A stretch of DNA of 64,000 nucleotides, taken from the NCBI GenBank assembly GCA_001817915.1, contig MHJJ01000014.1, positions 3,695 through 67,694 on the forward strand, written 5' to 3'. Below the pieces are notes generated by a model. The model searched no databases. It saw only the letters and a list, made by a program, of their open reading frames with translations, and was not told the origin of the DNA. The translations under genes were made by a program, and so were the position numbers. The DNA is from Candidatus Harrisonbacteria bacterium RIFCSPLOWO2_01_FULL_44_18. GTDB taxonomy: Bacteria > Patescibacteriota > Minisyncoccia > UBA6257 > WO2-44-18. Every line of letters starts with the position of its first letter. Position 1 is the stretch's first letter. Positions 53,607-63,553 of the stretch are shown here, piece after piece.

Positions 53607-53636
53607 CCCATAAGGCTTGTCAATCGCAAGGATAGT
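53607..53636 (+). promoter_or_regulatory. sigma70 promoter (TTGTCA-17-TATAAT) driving tRNA-fMet
   Basis: TTGTCAatcgcaaggatagtttgaTATAAT, ending 4 nt before the tRNA 5' end. Confidence 0.55.
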
Positions 53637-53639
53637 TTG

Positions 53640-53711
53640 ATATAATATTCTCGCGGGGTAGAGAAGTAGTATCTCGCAAGGCCCATAACCTTGAGATCGT
53701 TGGTGCAATTC
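53640..53711 (+). tRNA. initiator tRNA-fMet (anticodon CAU) with non-canonical D and T loops
   Basis: CGCGGGG TA GAGA AGTAGTA TCTC G CAAGG CCCATAA CCTTG AGATC GTTGG TGCAATT CCAAC CCCCGCA A. The acceptor stem is identical to E. coli tRNA-fMet, including the C1:A72 mismatch. The D-loop lacks GG and the T-loop is TGCAATT rather than TTCRAAT. Confidence 0.65.
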
Positions 53712-53742
53712 CAACCCCCGCAACAAAATTTTTACTTTAATT

Positions 53743-53805
53743 GCCGGCGTAGCTCAGCGGCACCCCGCACTAAAACAAGTTTAGTACGGGGCAAGGAGCG
53801 AGCCA
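53743..53805 (+). pseudogene. tRNA 5' fragment (acceptor + D arm) with hairpin insertion
   Basis: GCCGGCG TA GCTC AGCGGCA, then the hairpin CCCCGCACTAAAACAAGTTTAGTACGGGG, then GAGC. No anticodon arm, T arm or acceptor 3' strand follows. Confidence 0.4.
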
Positions 53806-53809
53806 AGAT

Positions 53810-53884
53810 GGCTGGGTAGCTCAGTGGTAGAGCAGGCGTTTCATAAGCGCCAGGTCGCGAGTTCGATCCTCGCCCCAGCCACCA
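53810..53884 (+). tRNA. tRNA with CAU anticodon, elongator Met or lysidine-type Ile2, CCA encoded
   Basis: GGCTGGG TA GCTC AGTGGTA GAGC A GGCGT TTCATAA GCGCC AGGTC GCGAG TTCGATC CTCGC CCCAGCC A CCA. G1:C72 is paired, so it is not an initiator. The AGAGCAGGCG...GGTCGC blocks resemble E. coli tRNA-Ile2. Confidence 0.75.
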
Positions 53885-60319: not shown

Positions 60320-63300
60320 ATGGCTAAAACAAAAGCAAAAAAAGCGAGTAAAAATGAGGAGAAACAGCCTTCTTATACTGCCAAAGACATTTATGTTTTG
60401 GAAGGATTGGAGCCGGTTCGAAAGCGGCCGGGGATGTATATTGGCACAACTGATGTTGCTGGCCTACACCACCTAATTTATGAAGTCGTTGATAATTCAA
60501 TTGACGAGGCGATGGCCGGATACGCGAAAAATATTCAAGTTGAGTTTTTGCCGGGCAATCGGATAGCGGTAACCGATGATGGCCGCGGCATTCCGGTAGA
60601 GATTCATAAACAAACCAAAAAATCCGCGCTTGAAACCGTGATGACAACTTTGCATGCCGGAGGGAAATTTGGCGGCGAATCTTATAAAGTCTCCGGCGGC
60701 TTGCATGGCGTCGGCGTTTCGGTAGTTTGCGCCCTCTCAAAGTGGATGAAAGCGGAGGTTTGCCGCGATAAAGGACTTTATGTTCAAGAATATGAGCGCG
60801 GTAAACCGCAATATAAAGTTAAAAAAATAGCAAAGTGCGATAGTACCGGCACTAAAGTAACTTTTGAGCCGGATCCGGAAATTTTTAAAACGATTGAATT
60901 CGACCGCAAGCGCGTCTTGGATCATTTGCGCCAGCAAGCTTTTCTTACTAAAGGCGCAAGAATCGAAGTCATCGATATTCGCGAAAAAACGCCTTTTTAC
61001 CACGCCTTCTATTTTGACGGCGGACTTTTATCATTTATCAAATTTCTTAACCGCAGCGAAAAACCGCTGCAAGAGACGCCTTTTTACATTAATAAAACCT
61101 CGGAGGGCGTGGAGGTTGAGGCGGTTTTTACTTATAATAACGAATTGGAAATTCAGGAATTGAGCTTTGCCAATAATATTTATACTCCTGATGGCGGGAT
61201 GCATTTGACCGGTTTTCGTTCGGCCTTAACCCGCACTTTAAATGATTATGCTCGCGGCAACGATTATGTTAAAAAAGATGAAGATAATTTGACTGGTGAT
61301 GATGTGAGGGAGGGTCTTGTTGCCATTGTTTCGGTGAAAATTCGCGAGCCGCAATTTGAAGGCCAGACTAAGGCAAGGTTAGGAAATTCTGAAGCCAGGA
61401 CGGCGGTTGAGGGCGTTATCGGTGAAGCGCTTAAGGAATTTTTGGAAAGAAATTCTGTCGATGCCAGGCGTATCATGGAAAAATGCCTGTTGGCCGCTAA
61501 GGCCAGGAAAGCGGCTAAAGCGGCGAAAGAAACCGTGCTACGCAAGGGGATTTTAGAAGGATTAACTCTGCCCGGAAAATTAGCCGATTGTAGTTCAAGA
61601 AACCCCGAAGAATCGGAGTTGTTTATCGTGGAAGGAGATAGCGCCGGTGGGTGTTTTTTCGGTGAAACAAAAGTAGCTTTATTAGATGGAAGGAATATCT
61701 CGTTTAAAGATTTAGTTGAGGAAGAAAAAAAAGGAAAGAAAAATTTTTGTTATACCATAAAAAAAGATGGCCATATTGGCGTTGCTCCTATTTTAAATCC
61801 AAGAATAACCAGGCAGAATGCTAAAGTGGCTAAGGTTATTTTGGATAATGGTCAAGAAATTATATGTACGCCAGGTCATAAGTTTATGCTTAGAGATGGC
61901 ACTTTTAGAGAGGCCAAAGATTTAAATTGCAGAGATTCTTTAATGCCTTTATATCGAAAAAAATCGGAGATTGGAGGGCGAATAACAATTGATGGGTATG
62001 AAATGGTCTACAATCCTAAAGAAAATTTTTGGAGGTTTACTCATGTTTTATCAGATGGGCTTAATTTAGAAAATAAAACGTATTTTGAAACTAATGGACC
62101 ACAAAGGCACCATAAAGATTTTAATAAATTAAATAATAATCCGAATAATATTACCCGACTATCCAAAGAAGATCATTTTAGAATCCATCAAGAAATTGCC
62201 CTGACCGTATTGAGAAGCCCAGAGGTTTTAGAAAAATTAAGGAAAATAAGGCAATCCCCCGAATATAGAAATAGGATAAGCAAAAAAATGCGCGAGCCCA
62301 GAATGAGAGCCATACTTAGCGAAAGAGCCAAAAAACAATGGGAAAACGAGAATTATAAAAAATTTATGGCTCAGAAGTTTTTAGGATTTTATAAAAATAA
62401 TGAGGAATACAGAAATAAAAATAAAAAATTACTGTACAAAAGCCAGATGGAGTATTGGAACAACGAAGACAACAGAAAGAAACAAGCCGAAAGGGTTAGA
62501 AATTATTTCCATAAAAATTTAGTCATAAGGTCTTGGCTTTCTCAAATCGCGAAACAGCAGTGGGATGATTCAGCTCTAATAAAATGGAGGGCGAACAAAA
62601 CCAAAGAACAATGGACTCAAGCATTTAGAATTAAAAGGAGCATGGCTTATAGCAAGACATATAAAGAGAAGGCCCTGAAATTGCTAAAAGAACTTTTTGA
62701 TGGAAATGGGAAAATTGAAAAAGGAGAATATACACGGGAAAGACTTATTAGAAAAGACAAATCTATCCTTAGATATGAAACCATTTGTGAAAGATTTTTT
62801 GATAGTGATGAAAATAAATTGAAAGAAGCCGTAATAAATTACAATCATAAAATTAAAGCAGTGATTCCATTAGAAGAAAAGATGGACGTATACGATATAG
62901 AGGTTCCCAATACTCACAATTTTGCTCTTGCTTCTGGAGTTTTTGTTCATAATAGTAGTAAGCAAGGACGTGACCGGCGAACTCAAGCAATTCTTCCGCT
63001 TAAGGGCAAGATTTTGAATGTGGAAAAATCAAGGATTGATAAAATGCTTTTGAACAAAGAGATTAAAGCGTTAGTGGTTGCCATAGGAACGGCGATAGCC
63101 GAGTCGTTCGATATCAATAAATTGCGCTACCATAAAGTGATTTTAATGACTGACGCCGATGTTGACGGATCGCATATCCGGACTTTGCTTTTGACTCTTT
63201 TTTATCGCTACTTTCCCCAAATTATTGACGAAGGCCATCTTTACATCGCCCAACCCCCGCTTTATCGCGTTCAAAAAGGCAAAGAAATAAGCTATATTTA

Positions 63301-63553
63301 CAGAGAAGAAGAAAGAGAAAAATTACCGAAAGAGGGGATTAATTTACAGCGCTATAAAGGTCTTGGCGAAATGAATCCGGAACAGCTTTGGGAAACGACC
63401 ATGGATCCGGCCAAAAGAGCATTGAGGATAGTGAAGGTGGATGATGTCGAAGAGGCTGATAGAATGTTTGATGTTTTGATGGGTGAAGACGTTGAGCCGA
63501 GGAAAAATTTTATACAAGCCCACGCTCTTTCAGTTAAAAACTTCGATATATAA
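60320..63553 (+). CDS. gyrB: DNA gyrase subunit B containing an intein
   Basis: Exteins total 643 aa with GyrB ATPase and Toprim blocks (HAGGKFGG, EGDSAGG|S.KQGRDR, MTDADVDGSHI). A 434-aa insertion sits between GG and S. Confidence 0.9.
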   Translation: MAKTKAKKASKNEEKQPSYTAKDIYVLEGLEPVRKRPGMYIGTTDVAGLHHLIYEVVDNSIDEAMAGYAKNIQVEFLPGNRIAVTDDGRGIPVEIHKQTKKSALETVMTTLHAGGKFGGESYKVSGGLHGVGVSVVCALSKWMKAEVCRDKGLYVQEYERGKPQYKVKKIAKCDSTGTKVTFEPDPEIFKTIEFDRKRVLDHLRQQAFLTKGARIEVIDIREKTPFYHAFYFDGGLLSFIKFLNRSEKPLQETPFYINKTSEGVEVEAVFTYNNELEIQELSFANNIYTPDGGMHLTGFRSALTRTLNDYARGNDYVKKDEDNLTGDDVREGLVAIVSVKIREPQFEGQTKARLGNSEARTAVEGVIGEALKEFLERNSVDARRIMEKCLLAAKARKAAKAAKETVLRKGILEGLTLPGKLADCSSRNPEESELFIVEGDSAGGCFFGETKVALLDGRNISFKDLVEEEKKGKKNFCYTIKKDGHIGVAPILNPRITRQNAKVAKVILDNGQEIICTPGHKFMLRDGTFREAKDLNCRDSLMPLYRKKSEIGGRITIDGYEMVYNPKENFWRFTHVLSDGLNLENKTYFETNGPQRHHKDFNKLNNNPNNITRLSKEDHFRIHQEIALTVLRSPEVLEKLRKIRQSPEYRNRISKKMREPRMRAILSERAKKQWENENYKKFMAQKFLGFYKNNEEYRNKNKKLLYKSQMEYWNNEDNRKKQAERVRNYFHKNLVIRSWLSQIAKQQWDDSALIKWRANKTKEQWTQAFRIKRSMAYSKTYKEKALKLLKELFDGNGKIEKGEYTRERLIRKDKSILRYETICERFFDSDENKLKEAVINYNHKIKAVIPLEEKMDVYDIEVPNTHNFALASGVFVHNSSKQGRDRRTQAILPLKGKILNVEKSRIDKMLLNKEIKALVVAIGTAIAESFDINKLRYHKVILMTDADVDGSHIRTLLLTLFYRYFPQIIDEGHLYIAQPPLYRVQKGKEISYIYREEEREKLPKEGINLQRYKGLGEMNPEQLWETTMDPAKRALRIVKVDDVEEADRMFDVLMGEDVEPRKNFIQAHALSVKNFDI
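61652..62953 (+). mobile_element. GyrB intein with HNH-type homing endonuclease domain
   Basis: Begins Cys (CFFGETKVALLDG, block A), block B ICTPGHKF, and ends VFVHN with S as the +1 residue. Central HH...N...N...H motif (RHHKDFNKLNNNPNNITRLSKEDHFRIH). Composition is AT-richer than the exteins. Confidence 0.8.

Follow-up and report, generated by a model that had tools for sequence, protein, structure and literature searches.

The window analysed here is a 64,000-nt stretch of a metagenome-assembled genome (MAG) of Candidatus Harrisonbacteria (Parcubacteria, CPR/Patescibacteria), and it carries an initiator tRNA gene on its forward strand at positions 53652-53723 (tRNA positions 1-73). ARAGORN calls the gene as tRNA-Met(CAT) at 53652-53724 (+), one of nine tRNAs in the 64-kb window, and Infernal matches it to the Rfam tRNA family RF00005 over 53652-53723 with 55.1 bits (E=4e-9; gathering score 29). 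Its minimum free energy fold is the cloverleaf (z = -3.2 relative to shuffled sequences). The first-pass annotation had placed the gene at 53640-53711, about 12 nt too far to the left, with the start inside the -10 box and the end inside the 3' strand of the T-stem, although it had correctly read the D-loop AGTAGTA (53665-53671) and the T-loop TGCAATT (53704-53710) with G55 at 53705. From the 5' end, the tRNA consists of one strand of the acceptor stem CGCGGGG/CCCCGCA, U8 and A9, the D-stem GAGA/UCUC enclosing the D-loop AGUAGUA, G26, the anticodon stem CAAGG/CCUUG (giving A29:U41, G30:C40 and G31:C39) with the loop CCCAUAA, a 5-nt variable loop (AGAUC), and the T-stem GUUGG/CCAAC with the loop UGCAAUU. 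The anticodon CAT lies at 53684-53686 (+) according to both ARAGORN and Infernal. The gene does not encode CCA: the three bases after A73 are CAA.

The surroundings are those of housekeeping genes. To the left, the order is metK, gatC, gatA, tRNA-Asp, murD (-), an NlpC/P60 peptidase gene (-) and then the initiator; to the right, the initiator is followed by another CAU tRNA, a small membrane protein gene, pheS, pheT and an intein-containing gyrB (60320-63553; the 1077-aa product has a Pfam Intein_splicing match). The neighbouring CAU tRNA (53810-53884, +), either an elongator tRNA-Met or a tRNA-Ile2, is canonical, with a GG D-loop, the T-loop TTCGATC and an encoded CCA, and in the related loci L201, L182 and L160 the initiator likewise has a CAU tRNA downstream. 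The spacer between the two CAU tRNAs (53743-53809) contains a sequence resembling a tRNA 5' half, GCCGGCGTAGCTCAG, which is also how an elongator-Met-like tRNA in L191 begins, and after it a 12-bp hairpin (CCCCGCACTAAA...TTTAGTACGGGG). We considered this fragment as a possible part of the finding and set it aside as a remnant, since no matching 3' acceptor strand was found within 3 kb and conservation of the spacer does not extend to L201, L182 or L160.

A promoter-like site lies just upstream of the initiator gene, as had been proposed, although the spacer is 18 nt rather than 17 and the -10 element is TG-extended. It consists of a -35-like hexamer, TTGTCA (53617-53622, +), which is a consensus match only, and an extended -10 box, TGaTATAAT (53638-53646, +), ending 5 nt before nucleotide 1; together the two hexamers match the consensus at 11 of 12 positions. 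A TGnTATAAT-like box is found upstream of the initiator in five relatives (L201, L182, L160, L193 and L139), and this conservation supports a promoter belonging to the initiator gene itself, from which it would be expressed. With TATAAT (from 53641) only 5 nt before nucleotide 1, the putative leader of the primary transcript would be about 0-2 nt long, which raises the question of whether the window tRNA needs RNase P processing; in relatives the distance from box to tRNA is 11-25 nt.

The identification as an initiator from the acceptor stem and the CAU anticodon is borne out. C1 (53652) stands opposite A72 (53722) without forming a Watson-Crick pair, a position that Infernal flags as non-standard, and in relatives position 1 is C, A or U, always opposite A72. 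In E. coli tRNA-fMet the formylation determinants are G2:C71, C3:G70 and A73, and on reading the sequence all three are present in the window tRNA. A11:U24 is also present, as it is in 62/70 of the relatives with G55 and 60/66 of those with U55. The tRNA thus has in common with the E. coli tRNA-fMet type the CAU anticodon, C1xA72, the three elements just named, A11:U24, G30:C40, G31:C39, A57, a 5-nt variable loop and the G19:C56 and U54-A58 tertiary pairs; it differs in A18/G55, C33, A29:U41, the 7-nt D-loop and the absence of an encoded CCA.

The anticodon stem has, as first described, two of the three G:C pairs expected of an initiator. The relaxed form of the '3GC' rule holds, with three purine:pyrimidine pairs at 29-31:39-41 including G30:C40, whereas the strict version with three G:C pairs does not. 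Such au/GC/GC stems are a natural variant in alpha-proteobacteria and some mycoplasmas, in which G30:C40 is essential (PMC5389676), and they are found in 54 of 65 distinct G55 initiators; the two-pair stem is therefore a known natural variant and no sign of decay. In the published au/GC/GC initiators, as here, the first G:C is replaced by A:U and G30:C40 is kept; however, a normal elbow is described for them (PMC5389676), which makes the exchange at positions 18 and 55 an additional and independent feature of the window tRNA.

A further departure was overlooked in the first-pass annotation: position 33 of the anticodon loop CCCAUAA is C (53683), where nearly all tRNAs have U. Many eukaryotic initiators are known to have C33 (PMC5041475). 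Among distinct CPR-like initiators, C33 occurs in 15/70 with G55 and 31/66 with U55, and some Bacilli MAGs have it too; the nearest relative by tRNA sequence, L201, has U33.

The contact between G18 and Psi55 is treated as invariant in the structure of cytoplasmic and bacterial tRNAs. In the usual elbow, G18 intercalates between positions 57 and 58 and bonds to Psi55. This canonical G18-U/Psi55 contact is absent from the window tRNA, which has A18 (53668) and G55 (53705) instead. The initial description was of a D-loop without G18 and G19 and of a T-loop that had lost T54-Psi55-C56. Only one position of each claim stands, as G18 is gone and position 55 has changed, whereas G19 (53669), U54 and C56 are all present. 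The T-loop (53704-53710) reads U54, G55, C56, A57, A58, U59 and U60, and the D-loop contains A18 and G19 at 53668-53669. The assignment of these last two is provided by the Infernal alignment, which places AGUAGUA onto the consensus AaUGGUA, and by matched 7-nt D-loops from canonical and variant initiators: AGTGGTA (with TTC in the T-loop) corresponds to AGTAGTA (with TGC), AACGGTA to AACAGTA and AGCGGTA to AGCAGTA. As the members of each pair differ at the first G only, it is G18 that has become A18, and G19 is retained. The partners of G19:C56, U54-A58, U8-A14 and G15:C48 are likewise all in place. The suggestion that both sides of the elbow had changed together is thus correct, although the contacts are not lost: one of two is exchanged. 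Read from the sequence, G18-Psi55 is replaced on both sides by A18-G55, with no change to the outer G19:C56 pair. All eight remaining tRNAs of the window have the canonical GG and TTC.

The two positions also changed together elsewhere. Genome contigs were scanned with an initiator pattern that allowed any base but T at position 55, and at least 119 stretches matched. Among the matches listed, 69 are G55 initiators, with A-G at positions 18-19 in 68 of the 69; the D-loops of the G55 initiators listed are AGTAGTA (43), AGTAGCA (7), AGCAGTA (5), AACAGTA (4) and rarer forms. The sole exception among the matches listed is L019 (280-356), from a Chthoniobacter flavus MAG, with G55 (T-loop TGCAAAT) and the D-loop AGCCTGGTA. 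L019 could be erroneous or a genuine intermediate, and since it keeps GG with G55, the coupling of 18 and 55 is not absolute. The C55 initiators among the matches listed from genome contigs keep GG in 24 of 24 cases. These C55 initiators, with the T-loop TCCAAAT or TCCGAAT and a normal GG D-loop, occur in many Clostridia, Bacilli and Mollicutes MAGs (for example L007, L024, L025, L028, L034, L039, L046 and L047) and show no compensating change in the D-loop.

Metagenome contigs were scanned with position 55 left free, using a pattern that covers only au/GC/GC stems with an ACA 3' tail (at least 120 matches). The 110 parseable CPR-like initiators among the matches listed comprise 30 with A18/G55, about 27% of this sample, 80 with G18/U55 and none with a mixed state; the association of G55 with the absence of GG, and of U55 with its presence, has a Fisher p of ~1e-27 in these matches. 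A scan of viral contigs for G55 initiator-like tRNAs, which was complete at 38 matches, found A-G at 18/19 in every one with a readable D-arm. G18/U55 and A18/G55 therefore behave as mutually exclusive alternative states of one contact, with single-change intermediates essentially absent. That mixed states are missing can be explained by work on a yeast suppressor tRNA, in which single changes in G18-U55 abolish function (PMC4117946).

Among the matches listed, nearly all carriers of A18/G55 are Patescibacteria, including Saccharibacteria, Kaiser-, Adler-, Taylor-, Nomura-, Uhr-, Falkow-, Nealson- and Tagabacteria and Paceibacterota; the few beyond this group include the isolate Euryhalocaulis caribicus (L060) and Polyangiales MAGs. 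By tRNA sequence, L201 is an A18/G55 initiator one base (U33) from the window tRNA, L182 is another with a compensatory change in the T-stem, and L193 is canonical (AATGGTA, TTCAATT) with the window tRNA's three stems and C33. By proteins, the closest genome recovered is a Harrisonbacteria MAG (L001/L002; GatA 74.5% and PheS 64% identical), and the initiator of L001, which adjoins the NlpC/P60 gene at the syntenic position, is canonical, while the more distant L160, L182 and L201 have A18/G55 and L139 and L193 are canonical. In a search for synteny based on PheS, the tRNA lay near pheS in only one of the three relatives looked up (L001/L002), and no tRNA was found within 10 kb in L003-L006. 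The covariation that the first-pass annotation had proposed to look for across the lineage is accordingly recurrent in Patescibacteria but not lineage-wide, as the state is polymorphic and the syntenic initiator of L001 is canonical. A neighbour-joining tree of the tRNAs with a Fitch count gave about 29 state changes, compared with about 64 after shuffling; the count is noisy and, because tRNA similarity does not track genome relatedness, we read it as no more than an indication of interspersed states. Such interspersion requires repeated switching or transfer.

At the Patescibacteria loci, A18/G55 is limited to CAU tRNAs, namely the initiator and a second family, GYCGGCGTAGCTCAGGTAGTTAGAGC...TGCAAGT. 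This second family looks from its sequence like an elongator tRNA-Met, and we take its D-arm to resemble that of the E. coli elongator tRNA-Met. It has A18/G55 regardless of whether the initiator of the genome is of the G55 or the U55 type (L014, L015, L021, L033, L089, L113, L128, L146, L162, L174, L191, L198, L208, L212 and L231).

Several A18/G55 initiator genes are interrupted just 5' of CAT by group I introns (Rfam RF00028, 54-72 bits), as in the Kaiserbacteria, Nomurabacteria and Parcubacteria MAGs represented by L018 (1697-1903), L078 (6208-6406) and L010 (4243-4485), and the interrupted pattern is seen at about 12 further loci.

The IMG/VR phage contigs (L248-L285) carry an A18/G55 initiator-like tRNA-Met, often in arrays of up to 24 tRNAs. 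In the phage arrays, G55 was confined to tRNA-Met (30/30), and 135 other tRNAs have TTC and GG. Arrays also occur in Polyangiales MAGs (L098, 2768-5169, with 24 tRNAs in 2.4 kb; L038, 43-858), where Phe, two Gly, Leu and an initiator-like Met tRNA carry A18/G55-type loops (TGCGACT with AACAGTA) and several other tRNAs have odd D- or T-loops.

Constraint on the variant was assessed in an alignment of 65 distinct 72-nt G55 initiators, with pairs counted on the cloverleaf. Standard pairs make up 99.8% of stem cells, compared with 39-50% in shifted-partner controls, 11 stem pairs show double (compensatory) changes, and the bases of the tertiary pair 15:48 covary, forming either G:C or A:U. The A in column 17 (A18) and the G in column 18 (G19) are invariant in this set; U54, C56, A58, C39, C40 and the 3' acceptor strand were preset by the search patterns, so that invariance there is no evidence. 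A 7-nt D-loop (65/70) and A57 (62/70) also prevail among the G55 initiators, whereas in their U55 relatives the D-loop varies from 7 to 10 nt and position 57 is mostly G.

These data bear on two rival explanations. As the source is a metagenome-assembled genome, the unusual bases might be sequencing or assembly artefacts; however, the 73-nt sequence of the initiator is identical in two independent metagenome assemblies from different sources (L246, JGI; L247, ENA), which excludes such an error, and the A18/G55 variant occurs in more than 130 other contigs, so that an artefact is scarcely conceivable. The gene could also be a decaying or silent extra copy, with a canonical tRNA elsewhere in the genome acting as the real initiator: A18, G55, C33, A29:U41 and the lack of an encoded CCA coincide in one gene, and the part of the genome inspected is 64 kb plus 10 kb. 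Against this, the au/GC/GC stem and the absence of an encoded CCA are normal for the group, and the gene occupies the site of the canonical initiator of the closest relative. No second initiator was found in the 64-kb window or in the 10 kb beyond the gyrB end, nor in the sequence flanking 99 G55 initiators (about 614 kb in total), and this gene may be the only initiator of its genome. All stems are intact with an Rfam score of 55 bits, the extended -10 box is conserved, and A18/G55 is maintained with compensatory stem changes across 65 distinct sequences at 99.8% pairing. We therefore agree with the first-pass annotation that this is a tRNA of functional type, and consider a pseudogene very unlikely.

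An explanation that deserves somewhat more weight, although we still regard it as improbable, is that the gene encodes an initiator-like tRNA that is specialised or came in by horizontal transfer, for example from a phage, and that stands beside or has replaced the canonical initiator and perhaps serves a specific purpose such as escape from a nuclease or enzyme that reads the T-loop. The presence of A18/G55 initiator-like tRNAs in phage and Polyangiales arrays is in line with this, as are the sporadic occurrence outside Patescibacteria (Euryhalocaulis caribicus, L060, for example) and the patchy states among relatives, with G55 in the window, L160, L182 and L201 and U55 in L001, L139 and L193. 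However, the window tRNA has its D-, anticodon and T-stems in common with relatives of both states: L201 is 1 nt away, and the U55 tRNA of L193 only 2 nt away outside the D-loop and position 55, so a change in place fits better than wholesale replacement. Furthermore, no mobile-element genes adjoin the window tRNA, which sits in housekeeping surroundings of conserved order (gatCA, murD, the NlpC/P60 gene and pheST).

The reading that we prefer, and hold to be quite probable, is that the gene has an extended -10 promoter of its own and encodes a functional initiator tRNA whose D-loop and T-loop are joined by an alternative A18-G55 contact; function and geometry are judged here from sequence. 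A plausible geometry is suggested by riboswitch T-loops. They follow the consensus YGNRA, in which UGHAA is the functionally favoured form, and the base that inserts between the fourth and fifth loop nucleotides is nearly always an adenosine; through two hydrogen bonds it contacts the sugar edge of the G in position 2, a position at which tRNA T-loops are the exception (10.1101/2022.12.26.521914). The window T-loop is a Y-G-N-R-A pentaloop within a 7-nt loop, UGCAA followed by UU, and together with A18 it matches this T-loop/receptor consensus. By analogy, A18 would stack between A57 and A58 of the UGCAA T-loop and hydrogen-bond to the sugar edge of G55. The outer G19:C56 pair would be unchanged and would keep the flat face that is contacted by RNase P, uL5 and the L1 stalk (PMC4810234), and U54-A58, U8-A14 and G15:C48 would likewise be unaffected. 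Given the retained elbow face, tertiary pairs and initiator determinants, the tRNA should still be processed, charged with Met by MetRS, formylated and placed in the P site.

The T-loop/receptor modules of FMN and cobalamin riboswitches have, like the window T-loop, Y-G-N-R-A plus two extra loop nucleotides, and in them a partner-loop adenosine bonds the G at position 2, with A18 in the matching place in sequence here; the difference is that the candidate module, known from sequence alone, lies inside a tRNA, where the partner is a D-loop that also gives G19 to C56. Eukaryotic initiators (A54, A60; yeast tRNAi) offer another initiator-specific departure in the T-loop, with a distinctive D/T-loop substructure (yeast tRNAi structure cited in PMC7912444 and PMC7566577); there, however, the changes are at positions 54 and 60 and are fixed, whereas here they are at 18 and 55 and are polymorphic between related genomes. 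Bacterial tRNAs without GG and without the U55/C56 consensus are known in the non-proteinogenic tRNA-Gly that Staphylococcus uses for its cell wall, which has U18U19 or C18U19, has lost both elbow contacts and has an extra-ribosomal role, in contrast to the window tRNA, which keeps G19:C56 (PMC4574755).

Tolerance of the exchange in initiators could stem from their bypass of EF-Tu and of the A site, an explanation that would not cover the elongator case. The ribosomes of CPR bacteria carry a shorter uL5 and in many cases have no uL1 (PMC9297842), and a link between A18/G55 and this reduction is possible. The Trbp111-like C-terminal domain of MetRS was considered as a co-evolving partner that reads the elbow, an idea that would have accounted for the restriction of the variant to Met tRNAs, and rejected because in the co-crystal its OB fold binds the 3' end of the tRNA and not the elbow (PMC11286949).

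Going further, A18-G55 could be a selected, non-neutral mark of initiator and sometimes elongator Met tRNAs. Such a mark might hide these tRNAs from factors that read a T-loop with Psi55, such as a modification enzyme, a tRNA-cleaving toxin or a defence nuclease, or alternatively might reflect tuning to the reduced ribosomes of Patescibacteria (PMC9297842), and it might have spread between genomes partly on phage-borne tRNA genes. Even with these variants taken together, we see this proposal as rather unlikely.

We found no published description of A18/G55 initiators in the literature searched, in which coverage of subscription journals was incomplete. The tRNA described here represents a natural, widespread and strictly coupled A18-G55 replacement in the tRNA of initiation, present in many Patescibacteria and in phage tRNA sets. 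The replacement provides a clean natural example of two-state epistasis in a tertiary RNA contact, testable with single and double mutants, and it ties the tRNA elbow to the general T-loop/receptor rule of riboswitches. It also predicts an initiator tRNA that would be unable to carry Psi55, which bears on how the elbow is read by TruB, TrmA, RNase P, the CCA-adding enzyme and the ribosomal P and E sites. For annotation pipelines, the consequence is that A18/G55 genes should not be called pseudogenes. Finally, the concentration of A18/G55 in CAU tRNAs may point to an unrecognised constraint that is specific to the initiator.
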